DNA of 43,188 bases, from the UHGV virus genome UHGV-1381253. One strand, 5' to 3'. Source of the DNA: a virus. The notes beneath the pieces were generated by a model. It did no database searches and was not told where the DNA came from. It saw nothing but the letters and a program-made list of their open reading frames with translations. Position 1 is the first letter of the stretch. Every line of letters begins with the position of its first letter. Shown piece after piece: positions 8,392 through 36,548 of this stretch. Both the position numbers and the translations under genes were made by a program.

Positions 8392-10164
8392 TTAGTATCC
8401 AAAACCAAACTCACCACTATCTAGTAAGTCTTGCAATGTTGGTGCGTCATAATCGTGATATTGAGCGTCACTCATGGCATTTATTATGGCGTCAAGTGAG
8501 TCAATTTTATTCCTGTTTATTTGCTTATCAATTGCAACGCTATCATTGTATTCTTTAATCATTGCATTGTATGCTGCACGATTCAATAAAGGGTTATTGG
8601 TGTGCATTACTTCACCTCTACGAATTAACTCACGCAGGGCTCTGGTTGGTGAAGATAAATAGTTAATTTTCTGTGGTACTTCAATTAGTTTTTTAGGGTA
8701 GGTTTTACTTAGATTAATCAAAGCCTTATCCATCATAAATGGATCATAATAAATACCAACCAATTGTAAGTCATTATAATCTATGAAATCACGTATCCAA
8801 TCACACATTTCTTCTGTATCAATTAAGCCATCTTCACGTTGTGAGATGTGAATGAGGTTCATTGCCTCATACTGTCTATAGGGTATTTTATCAATTGATT
8901 GTTTATGGTCTATACCTCCAACTGAAGACACAAAACCATGTGTATCTAATAATAGTTTGTGTTCTTCTTCTATTGGGATAATCCATGAAACGGCTGTCAT
9001 ATCTGATGTTCTTGCTAAGTCAATGCCAATATATACTTTTCTACCCTTAATATTATAATGATTGGGTGCTTTGACGGAATCCCACTCTTCTTTGGTTACA
9101 AAACTATCTTTAGATGATTGTACCCAAAAATTCATTTCTTTCGTTAACCAACCTGATAAATCCATTTTACCCTTGTATTCATCAAGTGAGTTGCGTTTAT
9201 GTTCCATCATTGAGTCGTATGCTTCTGGTATTTCAAACAGTGGGTTTGATTTAATCCAATTTTCTTCGTCATCTACTTCTGATAGACTATCCATTTCCCA
9301 GCAAAGAGCCAAATAAGCGTCACCTTTAACCTCTTCATTAAGTAATTTTTCAACGAATGGATATTCTACAGAGTGCATAGGCCCAGTTAGGTTTTTAGTA
9401 GTTGTTGAAATTATTAGTATTAATCCCTCTAATTGTTGAGATTGAGAGGATTCTAATACTTGAATAATTGCGTCATCTTTAGCTTCACCATATTCATCTA
9501 AAATACCGCATAATACATCTAGTCCATCAAGTGTATCAGCGTCACTTGATAGTGGTTTTACTGTTGATTCATCACTAGCTTCAATATCATATCTACGAAC
9601 AGTTGTTCTTTTTTTAACTTCTTTTGACACACTACGTAACGCAGTTAGCTGTGATTTGAGCATTCTGAAAACGATTCCTGCTTGCTCTTTTGTGTTTGCT
9701 GCTGCAACAACTTGACGACTGGCTGCTGGATTCTTACCAAACAAAAACTCATATAGTGCTATCCCTGAAACCAGTAACGACTTACCATTTTTACGTGCTA
9801 GTGAGATGTATGCTTTTCTAAAGCGTCTAGTATTATCTTTCTTTTTACGCCATCCATAGAGTAACCCAACAATAAATTTCTGAAAGTGGGCTAGTGTTGT
9901 GGTTTTGCGAGACTTAGGATCTGGAAGCATTTCAAGAAATCTAACTGGCGGTATTGCTTCCTCTGCCCTATAAATATATGGATATTTAGGGTCTTTTGAG
10001 CGTTCAATATCCTTCTGATGTCTTTCAATGGCTTTCTGTATTTTTTTACCAACTTTGATTTTAACTTTAATCGGTTTATAATAATCATCTTCTACTATAT
10101 ATTTACGTCCTTCAATCCATCCTGTTTCAATCAGATTGATATAATCTTGTACAAAGTCTTCCAT
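8392..10164 (-). CDS. terL: Terminase large subunit
   Basis: 590 aa. Walker A RKNGKS with the N-terminal ATPase domain, and a C-terminal nuclease region. Confidence 0.9.
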   Translation of the reverse strand: MEDFVQDYINLIETGWIEGRKYIVEDDYYKPIKVKIKVGKKIQKAIERHQKDIERSKDPKYPYIYRAEEAIPPVRFLEMLPDPKSRKTTTLAHFQKFIVGLLYGWRKKKDNTRRFRKAYISLARKNGKSLLVSGIALYEFLFGKNPAASRQVVAAANTKEQAGIVFRMLKSQLTALRSVSKEVKKRTTVRRYDIEASDESTVKPLSSDADTLDGLDVLCGILDEYGEAKDDAIIQVLESSQSQQLEGLILIISTTTKNLTGPMHSVEYPFVEKLLNEEVKGDAYLALCWEMDSLSEVDDEENWIKSNPLFEIPEAYDSMMEHKRNSLDEYKGKMDLSGWLTKEMNFWVQSSKDSFVTKEEWDSVKAPNHYNIKGRKVYIGIDLARTSDMTAVSWIIPIEEEHKLLLDTHGFVSSVGGIDHKQSIDKIPYRQYEAMNLIHISQREDGLIDTEEMCDWIRDFIDYNDLQLVGIYYDPFMMDKALINLSKTYPKKLIEVPQKINYLSSPTRALRELIRRGEVMHTNNPLLNRAAYNAMIKEYNDSVAIDKQINRNKIDSLDAIINAMSDAQYHDYDAPTLQDLLDSGEFGFGY

Positions 10165-10196: not shown

Positions 10197-10207
10197 ATTA
10201 TAGCATA
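10197..10207 (-). promoter_or_regulatory. Extended -10 promoter (TGcTATAAT) for terL, overlapping the upstream terminator U-tract
   Basis: Minus-strand sequence ttttttaTGCTATAATgtaattgaatagtataaaaggaggatacataaATG. Confidence 0.3.
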
Positions 10208-10239
10208 AAAAAGACTCCCTAGTTAGCTAGACTAGGGAG
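10205..10239 (-). terminator. Rho-independent terminator on the minus strand at the 3-prime end of the structured region
   Basis: Perfect 9-bp stem ctccctagt/actagggag with a 7-nt loop. It is followed on the minus strand by tcttttttat. Confidence 0.55.
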
Positions 10240-10299
10240 GTGTTAGTATCTGCTAGTATCCACGCCCTACGTTAAGTGGATACTAGCTTTATGTGTGCA

Positions 10300-10428
10300 C
10301 GTCATCAAATAGGGTCATACTATCACACTCTGCGCCAGATACTGTGGCGTGCGGTCGTTTACGTGCGCCGTTCACGACTGTTCAGTTTCCAACAGCAACC
10401 CTTTTTAACGTGGAGTGTGGTGAACCAC
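10300..10428. repeat. Copy A of the internal duplication inside the structured region
   Basis: Shares gtcatactatcac, ggtcgtttacgtgcgccgt, cacgactgttca and acagcaaccctttttaacgtggagtgtggtgaaccac with copy B. Confidence 0.8.
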
Positions 10429-10558
10429 GATTGCTCGCTGACGGTTAAGGTTTCCAACTCCGTCACAGTGCAAAGTATGGATACCGTCCCATACAGACCA
10501 ACGCTAGGCTAACCCGCCTGCGGGGGGACGTGAGTGACTAACTGCTTTGTCGTGCTTG

Positions 10559-10699
10559 TCGTCAAAGAGGGTCATACTATCACGCATTCGCTAGACACTA
10601 TAGCGAGCGGTCGTTTACGTGCGCCGTCCACGACTGTTCATTGGATATACAATGATATCCTAACAGCAACCCTTTTTATCGTGGAGTGTGGTGAACCAC
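10559..10699. repeat. Copy B of the internal duplication inside the structured region
   Basis: See copy A. One stem differs by a compensatory pair: cgcca/tggcg in A against cgcta/tagcg in B. Confidence 0.8.
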
Positions 10700-11025
10700 T
10701 GTGTGGTGTCCTACCTGGACAGATTCAGTATCAGGACTATGACGAGATAGCCAACGTTTCCTCTTAGGAGCTAAGGTTTCCAACTCTCCTAACGGTTGTT
10801 ACCCATAAGGTACTGACTGGAGTCAACGCTCTAAGTCGCAGCCAACGTTTTGTGTATGTCATTCTTTGAGGAATAAGAAATATACACTACCTTATATGTA
10901 CCGCTGTGAGCTAAGGTTTCCAACTCTCACACCGTTACTCATCAGAGTAAGTTTTAGCATCCCTCGCTTGCGGTGTCACGAGAGGTATTTTGTATGCCAC
11001 CTAACGCGAGTGAATAAATTATAAT

Positions 11026-12045
11026 TTAAAACTCACGTACCATAAACAACTTTTCGCACTTCTTGCCAACGTTAGCTCCTTGCATTGTAGATACCACGTT
11101 ATCAAAAGAATAAACACATTTGAATCTTTTATCTGATATCTCATAACTGCTTATGATAACCACGTTATCCTTAGCCATTTCATATGCCCAATCATAAAAT
11201 TCTTGGCTGTTGAACGATACACCGTAGGCATCGTGTGTATTTTCATATGGCGGGTCAAGATATAGAATAGCGTCTTTGACGTAAGAAAAGTCTTGATAAC
11301 TTAGGTTAGTTATAACTAGTTGTTCTAGTCGCTCTAGTCGCTCTACTTGGTGTAGCGGCTCTAGTTGCTTTAGTCGCCCTAGTTGCTGTAGTATCCTATG
11401 TTTCTCTGGTTTATCCTTAAAATCGGCAAAGTCATTGTTCTGGTTAGTTACGTTAGTTTTATAAGTTTCGGTTTGTTTATATCCGCTAAATACATCATGT
11501 TTTGCTATGATTTCTTTAGCTAAATTGTATTTTAATTCAGAATTTTGTTTTGAATATAGATAACCGCTACTATTATTTCCAAAACTGTTTATCAATAATT
11601 TTAAGTTGTCCGTGACGGTTTTTATTGCTTTTTCCTTAATCTCATAAAACTCATCACGGCTTATGATAAGGGTTTTAAGATAATCTCTATCGCTTTCTAG
11701 CACTTTGGTGAACATATCCGTTACATTCTTGTTTATATCGTTGTAATTGACTTCTAAGCCTTGTAACAAACACTCAGCAGTTATAGCCCCGCCGCCACCG
11801 AAGATGTCGTAAATTGTTTTGTCTGTTCCAAAGTTATCTTTGATAATTTGCACGATTTTCTTACTGATTTTCTTTTTTGAACCCACGTATGGAAGACCAA
11901 GAGCCTTACCTTTACGGACTGCTTTTTCGTTTAACTCTAGCAAAAAGTTGCCACCTCTCTTTTCCTTAATTGAAACAGTCAATCTGTTAATTATTATATC
12001 ACAAAATCCGACTTTTGTGATAATGGTGTATCTAATGTTTACCAC
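11026..12045 (-). CDS. DNA N6-adenine methyltransferase (Dam-like, D12 class)
   Basis: Motif X LPYVGSKKKISKKI, motif I DIFGGGGAI, motif IV YLDPPY, and the C-terminal VVIISSYE block. Located between terS and terL. Confidence 0.8.
   Translation of the reverse strand: MVNIRYTIITKVGFCDIIINRLTVSIKEKRGGNFLLELNEKAVRKGKALGLPYVGSKKKISKKIVQIIKDNFGTDKTIYDIFGGGGAITAECLLQGLEVNYNDINKNVTDMFTKVLESDRDYLKTLIISRDEFYEIKEKAIKTVTDNLKLLINSFGNNSSGYLYSKQNSELKYNLAKEIIAKHDVFSGYKQTETYKTNVTNQNNDFADFKDKPEKHRILQQLGRLKQLEPLHQVERLERLEQLVITNLSYQDFSYVKDAILYLDPPYENTHDAYGVSFNSQEFYDWAYEMAKDNVVIISSYEISDKRFKCVYSFDNVVSTMQGANVGKKCEKLFMVREF
11326..11406. repeat. In-frame tandem repeat, 9 bp x 9 units, inside the MTase TRD
   Basis: Units: ctagttgtt ctagtcgct ctagtcgct ctacttggt gtagcggct ctagttgct ttagtcgcc ctagttgct gtagtatcc. 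On the coding strand it encodes ILQ-QLG-RLK-QLE-PLH-QVE-RLE-RLE-QLV. Confidence 0.85.
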
Positions 12046-12091
12046 TCATTTGCTATAAATAGTATATCATAAACGTTTAGTTTAGTGTAGG

Positions 12092-12556
12092 TTATCCTTC
12101 AAACATTTTTGCGAATGGGTCAAGTACCTCTTTTTCTTTCTCTGCTGGAAGAATAATCTTCATTCTTGAATTGATTGTTAATCCCAGGTCATTGGTTGCC
12201 GTTTTAAGCTCTTTTGAATAGGAGTTCATGGCATTAACCCAAGGGTTTGCTTTACCTGTCTCAGGATCAATTGCGCCCATCTGTGCTACCTTCTCTACTG
12301 CTTCAGCGTATAGATAATTATAGTTACAATATCTAATGACTGTATTCACATCTAACTCACTAATAGGCAAGTCTCCTACATATGCTCCAATGCGATCCCA
12401 TTCATTAAAGGCTTGTGGCAATAAACCTGGTGGATAAAAACTGAAGTCTAGCTTCTCATAATTGTAAAGTACTTCTTCCTCCTTCTCACGCTCTTCTCGT
12501 TGCTGAGTGGTCAAGTTACCACTTTGAGCGTTTAATAATTTCCGTGGTCTTGCCAT
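12092..12556 (-). CDS. terS: Terminase small subunit (P27-family-like)
   Basis: 154 aa, immediately upstream of the packaging genes. N-terminal basic region and a typical TerS size. An HNH endonuclease and candidate cos region lie upstream. Confidence 0.7.
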   Translation of the reverse strand: MARPRKLLNAQSGNLTTQQREEREKEEEVLYNYEKLDFSFYPPGLLPQAFNEWDRIGAYVGDLPISELDVNTVIRYCNYNYLYAEAVEKVAQMGAIDPETGKANPWVNAMNSYSKELKTATNDLGLTINSRMKIILPAEKEKEVLDPFAKMFEG

Positions 12557-13393: not shown

Positions 13394-13777
13394 TTACCTA
13401 CCTCTATTTTTCCAACTGTAGTTGTGTTCTTCCTTGTTGTGACACTCGTAACATATTGATTCTAAGTTATTTAATTCAAGTCTATGTTTCCATCCATTTG
13501 GACTTCTTAATTCTATCTTATGGTGAACCATATTAGCGTTGGTATACTTGCCTTGTGCTAAGCATACCTCACAGAGTGGTTGCTCCATTAGCTTGGCTCT
13601 ACGTGCATTCCTCCATTGTGTTGAATGATAGAACTCACTGTACTTCTTATTGCTATCATTGTATCTCACATGCTTATTGTATTGGCTATTGTTATACCCA
13701 CTATGCTCCGTACAATAGCGCTCTGGTAGCGTGACATAGTTGCGGCATGAAGCCACTGCACACTTGCGTTGTCTCAT
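13394..13777 (-). CDS. HNH endonuclease (terminase-associated type)
   Basis: C-terminal CEVC...HHKIELRSPNGW...NNLESICYECHNKEEH matches the HNH motif, and the N-terminus carries a CxxC...YCxxH zinc ribbon. Confidence 0.85.
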   Translation of the reverse strand: MRQRKCAVASCRNYVTLPERYCTEHSGYNNSQYNKHVRYNDSNKKYSEFYHSTQWRNARRAKLMEQPLCEVCLAQGKYTNANMVHHKIELRSPNGWKHRLELNNLESICYECHNKEEHNYSWKNRGR

Positions 13778-15058: not shown

Positions 15059-15343
15059 ATGGTTTTCAATATAATTGAGTTCAGTAATTATCAAGTAACT
15101 AAAGGAGGTATTGTATATAATAGATACAAAAAACCTACTAAACGGAAATGGGTTGGTAATAACATATACACAAAAATATACGATATTAATAATAAACAGC
15201 GCCTGGCAAGAGTTGATAAATTAGTCTATCAGACGTATGTACAAAATCCACCTTATGACTACGAATTAGAACATATTGATGGTGATGAGGCTAATTGTAA
15301 ATTAGAGAATTTAAAGTATATACCACTTAATAAGGAGGACTAA
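15059..15343 (+). CDS. NUMOD4 / HNH_3-type homing endonuclease-like protein (short, 94 aa)
   Basis: EFSNYQVTKGGIVYN matches NUMOD4. ELEHIDGDEANCKLENLKYI matches HNH_3. It lacks a C-terminal DNA-binding extension. Confidence 0.55.
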   Translation: MVFNIIEFSNYQVTKGGIVYNRYKKPTKRKWVGNNIYTKIYDINNKQRLARVDKLVYQTYVQNPPYDYELEHIDGDEANCKLENLKYIPLNKED

Positions 15344-15346
15344 ATC

Positions 15347-15634
15347 ATGGAAGTAACATTTACAGGAACACCACATGAAATCAGGCAACAATACGAACAG
15401 TGGTTAAACACACTTGATATTGAACAACAGCTACTATATAATAAAATAGTAATCACAGGAGACAAAAAAGACAAAGTACCATTATCAGAGTATAAAAAAG
15501 CAATTCAAGAAATTGCAATTGATAATGGAGGAGGAATAAAAAGTATTGACAACGAGATCATACAATGCTACAATGTAGAAAAGAAACGATTCTCAGATGG
15601 CTATTGTATCACAGGTATCAAAATAAAACAATAA
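15347..15634 (+). CDS. Hypothetical protein (95 aa)
   Basis: RBS AAGGAGGA. Early region. Confidence 0.5.
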   Translation: MEVTFTGTPHEIRQQYEQWLNTLDIEQQLLYNKIVITGDKKDKVPLSEYKKAIQEIAIDNGGGIKSIDNEIIQCYNVEKKRFSDGYCITGIKIKQ

Positions 15635-15639
15635 ACCAG

Positions 15640-15668
15640 TTGACACTGGTTTCCACACATGCTATACT
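15640..15668 (+). promoter_or_regulatory. Promoter TTGACA-17-TATACT with the -35 inside an inverted repeat (aaccagt tgac actggtt)
   Basis: ttgaca ctggtttccacacatgc tatact, then the leader tagttcataagataaagaggaggaag. Confidence 0.55.
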
Positions 15669-15700
15669 TAGTTCATAAGATAAAGAGGAGGAAGTATAAT

Positions 15701-15937
15701 ATGACACACGAAAAATACAACAAACTACAAAAGAAAATAGACATGCTTTACAGCGATTTTATTGACTTAGCAGCTGACACTGAAACAGCAGGCGAAGATA
15801 TGAGCAAAGTTTCAGAATGGGTAGACAACAACATTCAACCAATTATTAACTGGGCAAACGATAATGACGCTGAAGAAAAAGTTCTAACTGAGTTAAGATC
15901 TGACTACATTAAATTAAAGGAGATGCGAGAATGTTAA
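15701..15937 (+). CDS. Hypothetical protein (78 aa; start moved to MTHEKYN downstream of the promoter)
   Basis: The track start at 15659 lies inside the promoter. The ATG at 15701 has a strong AAGAGGAGGAAG RBS. Confidence 0.5.
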   Translation: MTHEKYNKLQKKIDMLYSDFIDLAADTETAGEDMSKVSEWVDNNIQPIINWANDNDAEEKVLTELRSDYIKLKEMREC

Positions 15938-17657: not shown

Positions 17658-17666
17658 TGCTATACT
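17658..17666 (+). promoter_or_regulatory. Extended -10 promoter TGcTATACT preceded by the inverted repeat agcacaaa/tttgtgct
   Basis: It shares the conserved leader ...tatacttagtgcataa... with the other early promoters. RBS GAGGGAGGA. ATG at 17700. Confidence 0.4.
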
Positions 17667-17699
17667 TAGTGCATAATATATGAGGGAGGACTTAATGGA

Positions 17700-20073: not shown

Positions 20074-20289
20074 ATGAATAAATTGAATTATAGAAAAGAC
20101 CTAACAACAGAAACTAATGAGAAAGTACGTATTTCAACGTATGATGACGATTGTGAGATTTACATTGGACTAATAGACGATGACAGAGATTATGCCGTTG
20201 TAACACTAACACTGAAAGAGGCACAACGTGTGAAGCGCTATTTAGAAGACGCTATTACAACTCATATTATAAATTGGGAGGAAGATTGA
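20074..20289 (+). CDS. Hypothetical protein (71 aa)
   Basis: Start overlaps the upstream stop. Confidence 0.4.
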   Translation: MNKLNYRKDLTTETNEKVRISTYDDDCEIYIGLIDDDRDYAVVTLTLKEAQRVKRYLEDAITTHIINWEED

Positions 20290-20639
20290 TGACAGAATCA
20301 CAATTTTCAAGAGAAGTAACAACTTACCTAGAAAGTAAAGGTGCTATCGTTAATAACCAAACAGGAGGTATGTTTTCTAAAGTTGGTGTATCTGATTTAT
20401 TAGTATGCTATAAAGGTTACTTCATTGCGTTAGAATTGAAGGTAGGTAACTACCAGCCAGATCCATTGCAAATCAGTTACTTACAAAAAGTACGTTACGC
20501 TGGAGGTTTTGGGCTGATTCTACATGACGCACTTCAAGAACTCATGGTTTTACTATCTTGCATTGACAATGGAATTGAACGACAATACAAGCAACCAGAG
20601 TTGCCAGAAATTAACGTGGAGGAGATTATTTATGATTAA
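20289..20639 (+). CDS. VRR-NUC domain nuclease
   Basis: VGVSDLLVCYKGYFIALELKVGNYQPDPLQISYLQKV matches the VRR-NUC core (D...ELK...Q). Start at ATG 20289 with RBS GGAGGAAG. Confidence 0.65.
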   Translation: MTESQFSREVTTYLESKGAIVNNQTGGMFSKVGVSDLLVCYKGYFIALELKVGNYQPDPLQISYLQKVRYAGGFGLILHDALQELMVLLSCIDNGIERQYKQPELPEINVEEIIYD

Positions 20640-23876: not shown

Positions 23877-24365
23877 ATGTTTAAAGTTGGAGACAAAGTT
23901 AGATGTATAGACAATGACAGAACACCCACCTTAACGATTGGCGAAGTATATGAAATTATATGTTCTGAGTATGATAATTTTATGAAGGAAACGTTTGTGC
24001 GCTTGAAAAATGACACGTCAGAATATATAGCTTCACGTTTTGAGAAAGTGACAGATTCTGATGAGTCTGAAGAATTAGAAAATACAATTGGTAAAATAAT
24101 CAAAGGTTCACATATTACTGGCAGTGTAATTGAATCTGAAGAATTAGAAAACACCAAACGTTACAAAACCACTTCAGGTAAACAATTATTTGATGTATTA
24201 GAAGATGACTTACTAACGCATGAAGAACTATGTGGTTTCTATAAAGCCAACATTTATAAATATACACATAGATATAAACAAAAGAATGGAATTCAAGATT
24301 TGAAAAAAGTGAAAGTTTATGTAGATCAATTAATCAAACTGGAGGAAAAACACAATGAGATTTGA
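23877..24365 (+). CDS. Hypothetical protein (162 aa)
   Basis: Internal duplicated SEELENT motif. The C-terminus YTHRYKQKNGIQDLKKVKVY resembles a phage DUF. Confidence 0.45.
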   Translation: MFKVGDKVRCIDNDRTPTLTIGEVYEIICSEYDNFMKETFVRLKNDTSEYIASRFEKVTDSDESEELENTIGKIIKGSHITGSVIESEELENTKRYKTTSGKQLFDVLEDDLLTHEELCGFYKANIYKYTHRYKQKNGIQDLKKVKVYVDQLIKLEEKHNEI

Positions 24366-24825
24366 ACCATTAAATGAGCCTTACGATATGTATGCCATAA
24401 CGGATGAAGGTCATGTGTTTCATTTAGACAAAGAACGATACGAAACCGAATTAGTTGATCCAAAGAATGGGAAAATGTATGTAGTACTTGAAGGCTCACA
24501 TACAAAGTCACGTAAATTCTACGTCTCTCAATTAGTAGCAGACATGTTTGTTAAAAATGAACACAACTTAGGATATTTATATTTTAAAGATGGTAATGTA
24601 CAAAACAGTCACCACACAAATATTGGTTACGCCATTAATCCAAAAGAAGGGGTAGAACGTGTGGCACGTCCCTTCAGAAAGAAAGTAGAGCCAAAACGCC
24701 ATTCGTTAATTGTAGCTATTGGAAAAGCGTGCGAGCAAAAAAACTGGAAAGAAGCCAATAGATTAGGTAGAGAGCTTTGGGAATTAGAAGGAGCAAAATA
24801 TGCAGACAGAAATAAATTAGTATAG
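24355..24825 (+). CDS. NUMOD4-like / degenerate HNH-like protein (156 aa)
   Basis: YAITDEGHVF is NUMOD4-like. YFKDGNVQNSHHTNIGY resembles HNH_3 but lacks the first His, so it is possibly inactive. Confidence 0.35.
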   Translation: MRFEPLNEPYDMYAITDEGHVFHLDKERYETELVDPKNGKMYVVLEGSHTKSRKFYVSQLVADMFVKNEHNLGYLYFKDGNVQNSHHTNIGYAINPKEGVERVARPFRKKVEPKRHSLIVAIGKACEQKNWKEANRLGRELWELEGAKYADRNKLV

Positions 24826-28173: not shown

Positions 28174-28210
28174 AAAAAGAGTTAGCCTAAACGGTTGACT
28201 CTTTTCTTTT
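28174..28210 (+). terminator. Rho-independent terminator overlapping the -35 of the next promoter
   Basis: aaagagt ... actcttt stem followed by tctttt. Confidence 0.5.
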
Positions 28211-28223
28211 ATCATGCTAAAAT
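28195..28223 (+). promoter_or_regulatory. Promoter TTGACT-17-TAAAAT
   Basis: ttgact cttttcttttatcatgc taaaat, then the leader ttaacttgtaagataaagaggaggaaatagaATG. Confidence 0.5.
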
Positions 28224-28253
28224 TAACTTGTAAGATAAAGAGGAGGAAATAGA

Positions 28254-28775
28254 ATGGAAGAAATTTGGACAGATACTAAAGACTATGAAGGAGTTTATCA
28301 GGTGAGCAACTTGGGAAGAGTTAAGAGAGTTACAACAGGTAGGATTTTAAAAAGTGGTAAAGATAAAAAAGGATATCTAAAAGTTATCTTATGTAAAAAC
28401 AATATTAAATCAGCCAAGACAATCCACCGTCTAGTAGCTCAAGCATTCATACCAAACCCAGAAAATAAACCACAAGTAAACCATATTGACGAGATTAAAA
28501 CAAATAACATGGTTTCAAATCTAGAATGGATGACTGCTAAGGAAAATACTAATCATGGGACACGTAATGAAAGAGTGGCTAAAGCTGTCAGTAAAACTTT
28601 GAGTATTCCAATCATCGCAATTAATCTAAAAAATGGTGAGTCTACAGACTTCTGTAGTGGTAAAGAATGTGCTAGACAATTAGGTTTAGATCCATCACAC
28701 ATTACAGATGTTTTAAAAAGTAGACGTAGACAAACTGGTGGCTATACATTCAAATATAACGGAGGGTACAACTAA
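28254..28775 (+). CDS. HNH homing endonuclease (NUMOD4 + HNH_3 + C-terminal helix-turn-helix-like DNA-binding motif)
   Basis: [13 protein letters not shown] is NUMOD4. [18 protein letters not shown] is HNH_3. C-terminal [20 protein letters not shown]. Confidence 0.75.
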
Positions 28776-28987
28776 TGAATATTGGAAATGTGGTAGAACT
28801 CAAACGAGATAATCTAAACGGCGTGGGTAATAAAGGTGACAAAGGAGTATTATTATACAAGCTGTATAAGCCAGTTGATGGTTACGAATGCATGGTCAAG
28901 TTATACAGTGGAGTCACTGAAGCCTTCCTAGAAAAAGATTTAAAATTAGCAACAAAAACTATTGACAAAGTAAACTTTGCATGGTAA
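28775..28987 (+). CDS. Hypothetical protein (70 aa)
   Basis: ATGA overlap with the upstream stop. Confidence 0.45.
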   Translation: MNIGNVVELKRDNLNGVGNKGDKGVLLYKLYKPVDGYECMVKLYSGVTEAFLEKDLKLATKTIDKVNFAW

Positions 28988-29021
28988 CATTAACTCATAA
29001 GATAAAGGGAGGAAAATTAAA

Positions 29022-29369: not shown

Positions 29370-29576
29370 ATGATGTTAGTAGACAAATTAATTTTAACAG
29401 TCAAAGATGAAGATGGTGTCATCATTAATAGACATTTTAATGAGGTGTATATAAAGATTGATCCAACGCAAATGATGATCGCAAACAAGAAGAACACTAT
29501 TGCTGTTTATAAGTTAGATGATGTACTATATATGCAAACACAAGGCCATCCAAGACAGTTTAGAATGTTCCAATGA
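29370..29576 (+). CDS. Hypothetical protein (68 aa)
   Basis: RBS AAAGGGAGGAAC. Confidence 0.45.
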   Translation: MMLVDKLILTVKDEDGVIINRHFNEVYIKIDPTQMMIANKKNTIAVYKLDDVLYMQTQGHPRQFRMFQ

Positions 29577-29678
29577 GATACACTATTGAGAGTTTCATAG
29601 AGTTTATAGTTTGCACTTGTGTATTAACAATAGATGTGATATACTATATTATATTTAAACGAGAGAGGAAGTAAGTAG

Positions 29679-31962: not shown

Positions 31963-31991
31963 TTGACACCTCTTAACTGAGGTGTTATACT
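31963..31991 (+). promoter_or_regulatory. Promoter TTGACA-17-TATACT with the inverted repeat acacctc/gaggtgt in the spacer
   Basis: ttgaca cctcttaactgaggtgt tatact, then the leader taattcataaagttaaaggaggaagtaagg. Confidence 0.6.
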
Positions 31992-32024
31992 TAATTCATA
32001 AAGTTAAAGGAGGAAGTAAGGAAT

Positions 32025-33000: not shown

Positions 33001-33702
33001 TTGATTATGATCATTACATTATCAGGAGTAATTGGGGTAGGTAAATCCTCAATGACACAATTATTAAGCGAGTTATTAGAAACCAAAGCTGTTTATGAGC
33101 CAGTTGAGGATAACCCTCTACTGGAAAAGTTCTACGCAGACAAGAAAAAGTATGGTTTTCTATTTCAGATTGACATGTTATCAAAACGTTTTGAACTTAT
33201 TCAAGAAGCTATGAGTGTTAAAAATGGGATTCTTGATCGCTCAATTTATGAAGATTCAATATTTTTAAAGCAGTTATATGATGAAGGTGCTGTAGATAAA
33301 TTAGAGTTAGATGTATATACAAAATTATTAAATCGTATGTTAAAAGAATTAGAACCTTTACCTAAGAAATCACCAGATTTGATGATTGTTTTAAATTGTA
33401 GTTTTGAAGAAGAAATCAAGCGTATTAATAAACGAGCAAGAGAGTTTGAGAAGGTGGAAGAAGGTACTGAACTATATGAATACTTCAGAGACCATCACGC
33501 TAATTATCAAGACTGGATGGCTAAAGATTTAGGCTTCCCTAAATTAATCATAGATGTAACAGAACTTGACTATGTTAATAAGCCAGAACACCGCATGAAA
33601 GTACTAATGATGATATTAGATGAATTATTCCATGTAGGAGCAATTAGTGGTGAAGAACATAGCTATTTCTCTCAAAAAGCGTGTCTCTCACGAGCATTCT
33701 AA
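33001..33702 (+). CDS. Deoxynucleoside kinase
   Basis: P-loop LSGVIGVGKSS. The DRS motif ILDRSIYEDSIF. dNK family length. Confidence 0.8.
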   Translation: MIMIITLSGVIGVGKSSMTQLLSELLETKAVYEPVEDNPLLEKFYADKKKYGFLFQIDMLSKRFELIQEAMSVKNGILDRSIYEDSIFLKQLYDEGAVDKLELDVYTKLLNRMLKELEPLPKKSPDLMIVLNCSFEEEIKRINKRAREFEKVEEGTELYEYFRDHHANYQDWMAKDLGFPKLIIDVTELDYVNKPEHRMKVLMMILDELFHVGAISGEEHSYFSQKACLSRAF

Positions 33703-33713
33703 GCACTTTAAAT
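33681..33713. repeat. 33-bp perfect direct repeat, copy 1 (gtgtctctcacgagcattctaagcactttaaat), overlapping the dNK stop
   Basis: Identical to 35475-35507. The preceding 3 nt match 2 of 3. Confidence 0.9.
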
Positions 33714-33740
33714 AAATTAAACAAGGTGATTACCCATTAA

Positions 33741-33783
33741 AAAACAAAAAAAAAAACCACTGGTCTAACCAGTGGTTTTTTAT
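33741..33783. terminator. Bidirectional rho-independent terminator at the convergence of the early and late arms
   Basis: A16 run, stem aaccactgg/ccagtggtt with a 5-nt loop, then a T7 run. Confidence 0.7.
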
Positions 33784-34808
33784 TATAGACTCAGATAGAT
33801 ACTATCAATTCGCACATCATTCACTGCACCTTCGCCGTTAGCTTTATTCGCTCTACGCAAGATAACATCTACTTTTTTACCTTTGAACTGAGCTTTCTTA
33901 ACAGTTACGTCAAAACCAAGCTCTTGTCCACCTTGATAGCCATATGCTTTCTTCACATCTGGGCGTTTAATACCAGCGGATTGAACACGTGACAACTCGT
34001 TGTTTGTTCCATGTTGCATGAAGATAACATATGCATATCGTCCAATAGCTCCTTGCGGTTTATCAGGAACTAACCAACCAGCTACACGAATCTGATCTTT
34101 ACCATGACCATTAAAGTAGTCAAGTTTACCCCAAGCATTACCTTGATGTTTAGGTTTTGTAGCAGCTACTGCCTTATCATGTTGGCTAGGTGTTGAAGGT
34201 GTTACGTTAGCACCACTTGGAGGTGTTTGTCCACCTGTAGATGGAGCTTTACCATCTGGTTTCAAACTAGGGTTATTGTAATACTTAAGAACGTTTTTAA
34301 TCACATAATCCTTCATTGCGTTAGTTACATTAGCTGGCTGTGCCTGTGTTGAGTTGAAACCAGTGTGAATAATTAACGAACGTTTAGGACATTGCGTGGC
34401 TGAAAACTCATGATGTAGACGTACTGTATTGCGGTTAACAGGTAATCCATAATATTTCAAATCTTGTGCAATTTGCCAAAATGTATTTTCTTCAGCTTGC
34501 AAAAAGTCTTTTAATGGGGTTTGATCGTTACCACACACTTCATAACCAATATAGTTTGTATTACCATCAGAGTTGGCTGTATGCCAAGCTGCATTGTAAG
34601 TATCCTCAGTACGCCAGATTGTATTCTTGTCAATATAATAATGCGCAAATCCAGCAGCTAACTGATTGGTGTTCATTGCTGCTAAACGATTAGCCTCTTG
34701 TTTAGCTGTTGAGTTACCCCACGTATTGTGGAATACCACGCCTTTCACTGCACCAGGTCTACGTCCAGCTACACCACGTGTAACTGTTTTGTTGATTATT
34801 TCTACCAT
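33783..34808 (-). CDS. Endolysin: N-acetylmuramoyl-L-alanine amidase (amidase_2/PGRP) with a C-terminal cell-wall-binding domain
   Basis: VVFHNTWGN...HYYIDKNTIWR...NYIGYEVCG...RLHHEFSATQCP is the amidase_2 core. The C-terminal ~140 aa are a binding module. Confidence 0.8.
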   Translation of the reverse strand: MVEIINKTVTRGVAGRRPGAVKGVVFHNTWGNSTAKQEANRLAAMNTNQLAAGFAHYYIDKNTIWRTEDTYNAAWHTANSDGNTNYIGYEVCGNDQTPLKDFLQAEENTFWQIAQDLKYYGLPVNRNTVRLHHEFSATQCPKRSLIIHTGFNSTQAQPANVTNAMKDYVIKNVLKYYNNPSLKPDGKAPSTGGQTPPSGANVTPSTPSQHDKAVAATKPKHQGNAWGKLDYFNGHGKDQIRVAGWLVPDKPQGAIGRYAYVIFMQHGTNNELSRVQSAGIKRPDVKKAYGYQGGQELGFDVTVKKAQFKGKKVDVILRRANKANGEGAVNDVRIDSIYLSL

Positions 34809-34824
34809 GTTATCACTCTCTTTC

Positions 34825-35106
34825 TTATTTGTTTGGTTCTGTATAGTTTAAAGCCTTTTCACTATCTGTAATACCTTTAGTTGTTGGGTCTGGAATCATA
34901 TTTAATGCATTAATTACAGTTAAGCCTAATACGTAAGGATTACTTACTGCTCTGACTAATACATCCAATAATGTGTCAAAGGATGTAATATCCTCAAACT
35001 TCAAACCAAAGTATGCTAGGATAGGTACTGCTAATGCGCCAACAAAACGCAAGATAAATGTTAGGTTGTCTTTGCTAAAACGAACTTTCCAGTTTATTTT
35101 TTTCAT
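34825..35106 (-). CDS. Holin
   Basis: 93 aa. MKKINWKVRFSKDNLTFILRFVGALAVPILAYFGL... has TM segments. Located immediately upstream of the lysin. Confidence 0.7.
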   Translation of the reverse strand: MKKINWKVRFSKDNLTFILRFVGALAVPILAYFGLKFEDITSFDTLLDVLVRAVSNPYVLGLTVINALNMIPDPTTKGITDSEKALNYTEPNK

Positions 35107-35118
35107 TCTACATCACTC

Positions 35119-35397
35119 CTATTTCATAAATAAGGATAAACCAATACTAATTAATGCCCCAATTACTGCGCCAACTGTTGTACGAGTTAACCATGTGTAG
35201 CTGTTTTTAAGGTCAGCTAATGCCTCTCTATTCTGCATGGACATGCTGTAAGCCTTATCTGCTTTCTCAGATTGGCGTTCTAAGCGACTACCATACTCTT
35301 TTAAGTCAGCTTTAATCTCAGGTATGTCATCCAATTTTACCTCAATTCTTGCTAACTGTTCTTTTAATGAAACAAACTCCTTATCATTTAAGTTCAT
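35119..35397 (-). CDS. XhlA-like lysis-associated membrane protein (putative)
   Basis: 92 aa. N-terminal coiled coil and a single C-terminal TM (TVGAVIGALISIGLSLFMK). Located upstream of the holin. Confidence 0.5.
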   Translation of the reverse strand: MNLNDKEFVSLKEQLARIEVKLDDIPEIKADLKEYGSRLERQSEKADKAYSMSMQNREALADLKNSYTWLTRTTVGAVIGALISIGLSLFMK

Positions 35398-35474
35398 AGC
35401 AAAACACTCCTATTCATTTATCACCTCGTTTCCTAGGTCTGTAATCATTATACCATCTATATAAGCGAAATAGT

Positions 35475-35507
35475 GTGTCTCTCACGAGCATTCTAAGCAC
35501 TTTAAAT
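35475..35507. repeat. 33-bp perfect direct repeat, copy 2
   Basis: Identical to 33681-33713. The two copies bracket the lysin-holin-XhlA cassette. Confidence 0.9.
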
Positions 35508-35546
35508 TTTGTTAGGTGGGTGATTATGCGTTTAAAAGCAAATAAA

Positions 35547-35566
35547 AAGCCCTCAATTGAGGGCTT
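35547..35566 (-). terminator. Hairpin terminator after the RBP gene (minus strand)
   Basis: Palindrome aagccctcaattgagggctt. Minus-strand ttttatttgctt follows it. Confidence 0.4.
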
Positions 35567-36548
35567 AATCAATATTATATGATAGTGAACTTATACCACA
35601 ATAGGTTGCATTTGCTCCAGGTGAAAATACAATTTTAGGGCTAGTTGTTATACCTAAACGACCACCAGGATTTCCACCACTAACTACACCAATCGCCCCA
35701 TACGCAAACTCAGTCACCCTTGGTTTGATTTCTGCTGGGAGAGTTGTTGCTCCAGCAGCGTTTGTTCCTGAACCAACTTGGAATGGGTAATAGTCAGTAC
35801 CAGCCAACATATTACCACTTTTCAATCCGAATTGGCCTTTAAATATGACTGTTTTTGTTCCATCAAGATTGTATTGGATCTTATACATACATGGATTATT
35901 CTCCTTGGTTTCAAATGCTGAACCCAATGTTAAATTAATCCAAGGAGTCTTAGTTAATGCTTTAGCATCTAATACGCCATTATAATTACCAGAAGCGTCA
36001 CTAAGTGATAATGTAATTAAACCACCACTAACACTCGTGGTAGATTCTGATGTTTGTTTACCTGTTTCATCATACAACCGTTGCCTTAGATTAACTGTTC
36101 CTTGGTGAATATCTGCTTCTGTAGTTGCTAACTTATACAGTCTTTCACCATCACTGTTTGTCAAATAGTATGTTGAGCCTGCTTGTAAAATACCATCATT
36201 AATACCCAGTTTACCATCAGTAACTTGATTTACGCCACTAGTTACATTTGTATACTCATTAAGAAATTCAGAACCACTAATAGTTGTTCCATTAATAACT
36301 CCACCATTTATTTCCGCTGCTGTGATGATTTTACCAATTAATTCCTCTGCAATAATTTGACTTGCAAACGCAACTTCAACCCATTGACCATTTTCACGAT
36401 TGTAACTATTTGTAGCTTTACCATTAATCACTTTAAACCATGTATCTCCATCTTTTGGGTTAGTTGGCTCTTCCTCTTGCCAGTATACTGTACCTGAACT
36501 GGTCTCAATCTGCATATTGTTAATAATTTTCATCCCTTGTGCTTGCAT
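35565..36548 (-). CDS. Putative receptor-binding protein / tail fibre
   Basis: 327 aa, Gly/Thr/Ser/Asn-rich. Last tail gene before the lysis cassette. Confidence 0.45.
   Translation of the reverse strand: MQAQGMKIINNMQIETSSGTVYWQEEEPTNPKDGDTWFKVINGKATNSYNRENGQWVEVAFASQIIAEELIGKIITAAEINGGVINGTTISGSEFLNEYTNVTSGVNQVTDGKLGINDGILQAGSTYYLTNSDGERLYKLATTEADIHQGTVNLRQRLYDETGKQTSESTTSVSGGLITLSLSDASGNYNGVLDAKALTKTPWINLTLGSAFETKENNPCMYKIQYNLDGTKTVIFKGQFGLKSGNMLAGTDYYPFQVGSGTNAAGATTLPAEIKPRVTEFAYGAIGVVSGGNPGGRLGITTSPKIVFSPGANATYCGISSLSYNID

Follow-up and report, generated by a model that had tools for sequence, protein, structure and literature searches.

Why should the lysis genes of a phage lie between two perfect copies of one short sequence? 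The question is raised by UHGV-1381253, a virus genome of 43,188 nucleotides (nt) that was analysed over its whole length and is called the window here. It groups with the Enterococcus faecium siphoviruses IME-EFm5, IME-EFm1 and BUCT630. In it the 33-nt sequence GTGTCTCTCACGAGCATTCTAAGCACTTTAAAT occurs at 33681-33713 and again at 35475-35507, both times on the + strand and with 33/33 identity, on either side of the lysis cassette. The original prediction offered two explanations for this arrangement. Either the cassette had been acquired, or could be exchanged or excised, by recombination between the repeats, or both copies were binding sites for a late regulator. The reading to which we give about an even chance takes something from each. 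The repeats would belong to a conserved, duplicated module, in which a terminator is coupled to a transcription-control site, and the pair would insulate the lysis cassette, undergo gene conversion and mark the boundaries of mosaic segments.

Anatomy of the repeated modules

The description of the locus from which the two explanations were drawn proved to be accurate. The repeats are perfect and direct, no further match with three or fewer mismatches is present in the window, and none was expected by chance (0 in 100 shuffles). The left copy (L) does overlap the last codons of the deoxynucleoside kinase gene (dNK), whose TAA stop at 33700-33702 lies inside the repeat, and the right copy (R) is indeed just upstream of xhlA, 78 nt from its start at 35397 on the - strand. 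Start to start they are 1794 nt apart, and they enclose a bidirectional terminator (33751-33781) and the genes for the lysin, the holin and XhlA.

The similarity of the two copies reaches past the 33 nt. Extension of the repeat within the window gives 40 nt, and alignment with relatives identifies the copies as paralogous segments about 100 nt long. The L module was placed at 33674..33781 on the + strand (profile match 33674-33752, E = 1e-19; alignment with 70 other copies) and the R module, which has the same anatomy, at 35468..35566 on the same strand (profile match 35467-35547, E = 3e-23; alignment). Read along the + strand, each begins with a short 5' flank rich in A and an arm of 11 nt; the core GAGCATTCTAAG comes next and is separated by a spacer of 21 nt from the octamer GGTGATTA, after which come the tract TTTAAAAGCAAATAAA and a terminator hairpin. 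The 33-nt repeat comprises the arm, the core and the first 10 nt of the spacer, and the octamer, shared by both modules, begins 11 nt past each copy. The core (33692..33703 in L, 35486..35497 in R) is near-invariant across copies, and the octamer (33725..33732 and 35519..35526) follows it after the 21 nt of spacer. On the late (-) strand the order is terminator, T/A-rich tract, TAATCACC, 21 nt, then CTTAGAATGCTC, which contains the -10-like hexamer TAGAAT (33701->33696 in L), and finally the 11-nt arm.

Both modules end in a hairpin. That of L, CCACTGG-TCTAA-CCAGTGG at 33751..33781, has A and T runs beside it and folds on both strands (-18.6 and -18.1 kcal/mol). It is shared by the early operon and the cassette, the + strand replication genes and the - strand late and lysis genes converging there. 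The hairpin of R, AAGCCCTC-AATT-GAGGGCTT followed by TTTATTTGCT (35547..35566, - strand, -13.4 kcal/mol), is the intrinsic terminator of the tail-fibre gene. T runs are found on both strands at the L terminator and on the - strand only at the R terminator. Relatives carry hairpins at the same place made from unrelated sequences (ccactgg..ccagtgg, gacaccc..gggtgtc, gaactctc..gagagttc and acacccct..aggtgt). These sites have what is looked for in an intrinsic terminator, ie a G+C-rich hairpin with a T run, and the hairpin is kept by way of different sequences.

A third copy was considered at 29555-29587 on the - strand, where the profile gives a weak match (GTATCTCATTGGAACATTCTAAA, E = 0.04). It was judged to be probably due to chance, being coding sequence that does not recur in the Efquatrovirus clade. 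The match forms the last codons of a 68-aa open reading frame (ORF), recurs only in one close relative (contig L032), and stands about 55 nt upstream of the extended -10-like TGATATACT ahead of the DNA polymerase gene.

Distribution and conservation

The version of the element found in the window matches 31 Enterococcus phage records, of which about 14 have it twice. The Efquatrovirus version is present at 197 places in at least 123 Enterococcus siphovirus records, where nearly all of the sites are unannotated, and the bipartite core was detected in 34 IMG/VR contigs. Across 185,579 bacterial and archaeal species genomes there were no matches to the core, and a host operator or prophage feature was rejected on this ground. 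When mapped against the lysis proteins and their neighbours, the sites are confined to the nrdH/dNK-lysin junction (L) and the xhlA-tail junction (R). Both copies are present in 34 of the 40 loci that cover both junctions, R alone in five and L alone in one, counts which carry an ascertainment bias, since it was by the element itself that most loci were found. With a profile made from all copies, exactly two matches are obtained in the window and two in complete phiSHEF5, and in neither genome is the element found ahead of the packaging and morphogenesis operon (terS). The motif is accordingly conserved in relatives and is not a generic one.

The content of the cassette is equally constant. 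Comparison of the lysis module and its flanks among relatives, as had been proposed, gave the same three lysis families throughout, with varying outer neighbours: every bracketed cassette that was examined is XhlA / Phage_holin_1 / Amidase_2, and only the wall-binding domain of the lysin differs. Unrelated lysis genes between the same flanks were suspected in some relatives and rejected; the genes had been missed by tblastn, and Pfam gives the same three families in all clades. Relatives with different lysis genes and no repeats were not what the comparison yielded, as the relatives carry the repeats.

Conservation within the module is concentrated in its two short motifs. Identity of the core and the octamer is 0.88-1.0 in every comparison, and the 3' half of the spacer has an L to R identity of 0.21, which is random. 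Between the clades the elements are 72-81% identical, equal to or above the conserved genes (65-72%). That they might be the only alignable DNA between the clades was rejected, as whole-genome comparison with phiSHEF5 aligns 16.5 kb at 65-72%, together with short stretches of 76-91% identity which are mostly intergenic and include promoter-like repeats. At 72-81% the elements therefore resemble the other non-coding stretches that are conserved. The L core is coding in the faecium clade, where it encodes the dNK C-terminus, and non-coding in Efquatrovirus, where nrdH stops upstream, so that protein coding does not explain its conservation. Two further coding candidates were discarded: the ORFs opened by an ATG within the core on the - strand are not conserved, and a small + strand ORF after the R octamer is missing from the L copies and from the Efquatrovirus copies. 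The comparisons argue that the module has been kept at both borders of the cassette since before the faecium-phage clade (IME-EFm1, IME-EFm5 and the window) split from Efquatrovirus. A recent acquisition of the cassette is not supported by this distribution, since the cassette and both flanks make up an old unit shared with Efquatrovirus.

A predicted lysis promoter beside the right-hand module

Copies were classed as L or R by their position relative to xhlA. All 44 R copies have the motif TGnTATA(A/C)T exactly 19 nt from the box and facing xhlA, and its free base n is A in 11, C in 8, G in 10 and T in 15. In the window the motif is TGGTATAAT (35455->35447, - strand), the extended -10 of a putative lysis promoter, P_lys, 19 nt downstream of the R box and some 50 nt ahead of the xhlA ATG. 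The -35 position is occupied by CACTAT, which is no match. A fixed offset combined with a varying n is the signature expected of a functional extended -10 promoter, and we infer promoter activity from it. The approximately 70 nt between the box and xhlA are 96-100% identical within the clade, above the level of the adjacent coding DNA. Relative to the predicted P_lys, the R box would extend from about -35 to about -67, with the octamer at roughly -79 to -86.

The core itself contains a second promoter-like feature. Its - strand hexamer is TAGAAT in 77 of 80 copies; of the three that differ, two (TAAAAT and TATAAT) shift toward the -10 consensus. The position 17 nt upstream of the hexamer is TTGTTT or TTACTT in L copies and mostly CACnnn in R copies; 35 of 36 L copies have TTnnnn, and in the window the -35-like TTGTTT is present in L only, at 33719..33724 on the - strand. 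The module may thus act as a weak promoter in its own right on the late strand. This is most plausible for L, from which it would be directed antisense into the early operon. We regard this as a lead only.

Exchange between the copies and mosaicism

The L and R copies co-evolve. The identity of the arm between L and R is 0.90 in the faecium clade and 0.70 in the Efquatrovirus clade, and between the clades it is 0.47 for L with L and 0.61 for R with R. In phage 9184 both copies have the derived ACC and CATCCAAAT, which are seen nowhere else, and another relative (L045) has an identical L-R run of 38 nt in a different sub-segment of the module. Among the 32 genomes with both copies, the window has no mismatch between L and R in the 33-nt box and the other 31 have 3-10. 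The R copy of the window departs from the usual R type at only three adjacent bases (GCG to CAC), and there it matches its own L copy. The shared derived changes, the conversion patches and the GCG to CAC change together indicate sporadic short-patch gene conversion between the copies. The perfect 33/33 identity is likely to be a recent patch of this kind, the latest such event. The R copy of DELF1 was at one stage taken for an L/R hybrid; this was dropped, as R copies in Efquatrovirus have the same cccattt flank, probably an ancestral one.

Programmed or frequent excision of the cassette, for which the original prediction had used the same 33 bp of perfect direct repeat, we consider very improbable. 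Short homologies of about 33 bp can support homologous recombination. However, perfect runs of 30 nt or more are found in only two of 35 genomes, in different sub-segments, so that long identity is not a conserved property. A screen of about 40 ORFs of the window gave no integrase or recombinase, the nucleases present being HNH endonucleases, and none of the 40 loci spanning both junctions has a cassette-less junction. A product of excision without holin and endolysin is a dead end, and loss of all the lysis genes should give no viable phage. As a conserved function, excision is largely refuted.

Exchange by recombination fared better, in part. In megablast comparisons with relatives the matches are interrupted near 33644, 33675 and 33728 on the left side and at about 35557-35570 on the right. 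The left outer neighbour may be dNK, a dNK remnant, another gene or none, and several tail-fibre types occur on the right, while the cassette is 85-100% identical even where the outer neighbours are absent or unalignable. Since the breaks fall at the elements and the genes outside them vary, the modules mark mosaic boundaries. The repeats do therefore lie at such boundaries and the copies do exchange sequence with one another, as noted above; replacement of a whole cassette was not seen.

It could be that the modules are no more than linker homology, with no regulatory role beyond their terminators, persisting as recombination patches through which the neighbours of the cassette are shuffled. 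The breaks at the elements and the variable genes outside are what such linkers would produce, as is the L copy of LG62, which carries an R-type 5' flank. The segment exchanged in a laboratory hybrid of Aramis and dArtagnan (K38.2) ends within the lysis module (PMC11210271), and shuffling inside these cassettes is documented, without mention of flanking repeats, promoters or terminators (PMC10630273). Against this, the benefit of later recombination is weakly selected and would not keep a 12-mer and an 8-mer essentially invariant, with a fixed 21 nt between them, across clades whose conserved genes share about 68% identity in their DNA. The 11 nt between the core-side repeat and the octamer randomise while the 12-mer and the 8-mer stay. 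Linker homology also leaves the fixed 19-nt offset to the promoter unexplained, breakpoints are found inside the lysin gene too, and no bracketed cassette belongs to a different gene family. We consider it unlikely as a full account.

Tests for a function in RNA

The modules could act in RNA and not in DNA. The L copy at the 3' end of the early (+) mRNA might pair with late (-) read-through RNA that carries R, or both might be bound by a shared protein, so tuning lysis expression; otherwise the module might be a signal in the 3' untranslated region, ahead of the terminator. Several features are compatible with this. On the + strand each copy is followed closely by a terminator hairpin, and there can be no doubt that L is transcribed, within the dNK mRNA. 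The two copies vary together within lineages, as would be expected of a matched pair, and GGTGATTA reads as Shine-Dalgarno-like on the + strand. However, RNAalifold gave no consensus structure for 62 distinct copies on either strand (structure conservation index 0). Nothing in the whole window reached the gathering score of any Rfam family, and at a permissive threshold the region gave only sub-threshold look-alikes of terminators. A stem of TAAGCAC with GGTGATTA, seen by eye and perfect in the L copy of phage 9184, was dropped when it proved not to be kept in R copies. Transcription from the predicted lysis promoter would begin downstream of the R box, leaving the box out of the main lysis mRNA, and no + strand promoter is apparent for the R copy. 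Exact identity of L with R extends for at most 7-15 nt in about half of the genomes, hardly further than the invariant core. A role in RNA is less likely still than simple linker homology.

Proposed role and comparison with known systems

The reading that we prefer, a duplicated terminator and control module acting at the level of DNA, can be set out as follows. The module would be a transcription-control site for RNA polymerase on the late strand, placed just behind a terminator. The R copy would form the upstream part, about -35 to -90, of a lysis promoter which has an extended -10 and no -35, and this promoter with the two terminators would set the cassette apart as an insulated transcription unit under its own control. 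L would be a paralogue of R, lying behind the terminator of the cassette at the meeting point of early and late transcription. There it may bind the same putative factor as R, or it may fire the weak antisense promoter TTGTTT-17-TAGAAT. Direct repeats 1.8 kb apart would be expected to undergo occasional mutual gene conversion, and the 33/33 identity would then be a recent patch and not a designed recombination site.

Several observations weigh against this, besides the ascertainment bias in the counts of loci. Promoter activity is read here from sequence alone. The extended -10 is found at the 19-nt offset in none of the 36 L copies, and the TTGTTT-17-TAGAAT of L scores 8/12 against consensus, a level that is common by chance. 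Five lineages have no L box, EF36P2 is naturally without it, and L is dispensable, at least for isolation. One metagenomic contig (L030, 2376-2484) has the xhlA-proximal TGtTATACT but neither an R box nor a terminator between the tail-fibre gene and xhlA, which means that its promoter is not strictly dependent on the box; it retains an L module. Neither copy is absolutely required. No transcriptional activator or DNA-binding protein was recognised among the approximately 40 window ORFs by PHROGs and Pfam, which may miss remote homologues. The regulator annotated in phiSHEF5, gp15, was considered as a candidate and has no homologue in the window.

The alternative first offered, that both copies are binding sites for a late regulator, thus stands in part. 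It suits the R copy, with its fixed distance of 19 nt from an extended -10 in 44/44 cases; a protein to do the binding was not recognised in the screen, and the roughly 20 small early proteins contain no DNA-binding domain above threshold. An extended form of the idea is that the modules are paired sites for a small phage or host protein in a circuit that times lysis. The factor would activate the -35-less R promoter and, at L, would block convergent early transcription or fire a late antisense promoter, the cassette possibly being looped between the two sites. This we hold as a speculative proposal, and rather doubtful.

Four known arrangements have something in common with the modules. Gram-positive siphoviruses have activator-dependent late promoters, and a superfamily of such activators (RinA/ArpU/LtrC/Alt) is described in PMC3753634. 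Unlike those systems, the window has no recognised activator homologue in the screened ORFs. The late promoter of TP901-1, P_late, which works with Alt and controls lysis genes, has a good -10, no recognisable -35 and a conserved upstream block. The predicted P_lys is of the same type, with an extended -10, no -35 and a conserved block at about -35 to -90. It departs from activator-dependent late promoters in that the site is at the lysis cassette only, and not before terS and the morphogenesis operon, and in that it is duplicated at L, a position without an extended -10 promoter.

In lambdoid and dairy phages, short conserved non-coding linkers are found at the junctions of modules with differing neighbours. 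The modules described here are likewise short non-coding sequences at mosaic junctions, but they are paralogous within one genome, conserved between groups as far apart as genera, built of invariant sub-motifs at fixed spacing and coupled to terminators and a promoter. Morons are autonomous phage transcription units with their own promoter and terminator. The cassette resembles them in having its own predicted promoter and terminators at both ends, and differs in its essential lysis content, in being an old vertically conserved unit and in having flanks that are copies of each other. The lambda operators OL and OR are paired sets 2.4 kb apart which cooperate by DNA looping. Here too there are two similar, co-evolving elements that look like protein sites, about 1.8 kb apart and bracketing the cassette; they show neither dyad symmetry nor a tandem array of operators, and some lineages lack one copy or the other. 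In kind, then, the module is a variant of morons, boundary sequences and late promoters of the activator type. The searchable literature does not contain the motif, and a paired, paralogous, terminator-coupled module with invariant sub-motifs appears to be undescribed so far.

Lysis genes, neighbouring genes and other features of the window

The lysis genes are all on the - strand. xhlA, of the XhlA family, is at 35119..35397 (Pfam PF10779, E = 7e-14), the holin (Phage_holin_1) at 34825..35106 (PF04531, E = 7e-22) and the endolysin at 33783..34808, with an N-terminal Amidase_2 domain (PF01510, E = 7e-17) and a C-terminal wall-binding domain that matched no family. The amidase half of the endolysin (34291-34808) is unalignable in many relatives (L004-L008, L016, L019 and L022), against which the wall-binding half is 85-88% identical and the holin and xhlA 90-100%. 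The pattern reads as a domain swap inside the cassette, in line with PMC10630273. Just ahead of xhlA, at 35394-35427 on the - strand, a seven-codon upstream ORF was seen by eye (ATGAATAGGAGTGTTTTGCTATGA, MNRSVLL*), with a strong Shine-Dalgarno sequence, GAGGTGAT, at 35427->35420. Its stop overlaps the xhlA start codon (ATGA), which hints at a leader peptide before the lysis genes or at translational coupling. This stretch is 96-100% identical within the faecium clade and absent from phiSHEF5.

On the left, dNK (33001..33702, + strand; PF01712, E = 1e-39) is the last gene of the + operon, its 3' end overlapping the L box. Beside the L module it shows a presence/absence polymorphism among relatives. 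In IME-EFm1 (L002, 2490-2540) and KEN18 (L007, 2505-2624) only its last 40 or so nt are left, fused behind nrdH. In LG62 (L008, 1307-2506) a 1.2-kb gene annotated as alpha-amylase family is in its place, joined to the L box by way of an R-type flank (aaatagt). On the right, the tail-fibre-like gene (35565..36548, - strand), placed from the ORF list and comparison with relatives, ends at the R terminator and varies among relatives.

Elsewhere in the window there is a non-coding gap of about 860 nt, between the large terminase (8392-10164, -) and the DNA methyltransferase and small terminase (11026-12556, -). The gap (10200-10950) has a G+C content of 0.47-0.52 versus about 0.35 around it, contains direct repeats with periods of about 257-271 nt and 140-466 nt (families D9, D11, D13, D19 and D20), and gave no Rfam match. 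It could be a cos/pac region or a structured element. Promoter-like repeats on the + strand are found at 15634-15700, 17658-17690, 28189-28255, 28982-29014 and 31983-32015. They are laid out as TTGACA, 17 nt, TGCTATACT and a ribosome-binding site, ahead of + strand genes. In two of these regions, at about 15620-15723 and 31983-32015, short stretches match intergenic DNA of phiSHEF5 at 76-91% identity; no separate match was obtained for the other members. Four HNH endonuclease genes and one further endonuclease gene were located at 13394-13777 (-) and at 15059-15343, 24355-24825, 28254-28775 and 20274-20639 (+). Relatives have HNH or I-HmuI-like genes at other places, for example between the polymerase gene and nrdH in KEN22, SSBHU and EF36P2, which points to active homing-endonuclease traffic in this group of phages.

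Implications

The Enterococcus siphoviruses of about 40 kb, ie Efquatrovirus and the IME-EFm1/EFm5 group, are among the most used therapy candidates against E. faecalis and vancomycin-resistant E. faecium. A precisely delimited and strongly conserved module with a predicted lysis promoter would offer a handle for experiments on lysis timing in these phages, and the module may serve as a natural 'landing pad' for engineering or swapping lysis cassettes. It also carries a warning, in that engineered constructs which keep both copies can undergo gene conversion or deletion. Should the modules prove to be the paired sites of a timing circuit, they would represent a new regulator-operator system that sets when a virulent Gram-positive phage lyses its host.

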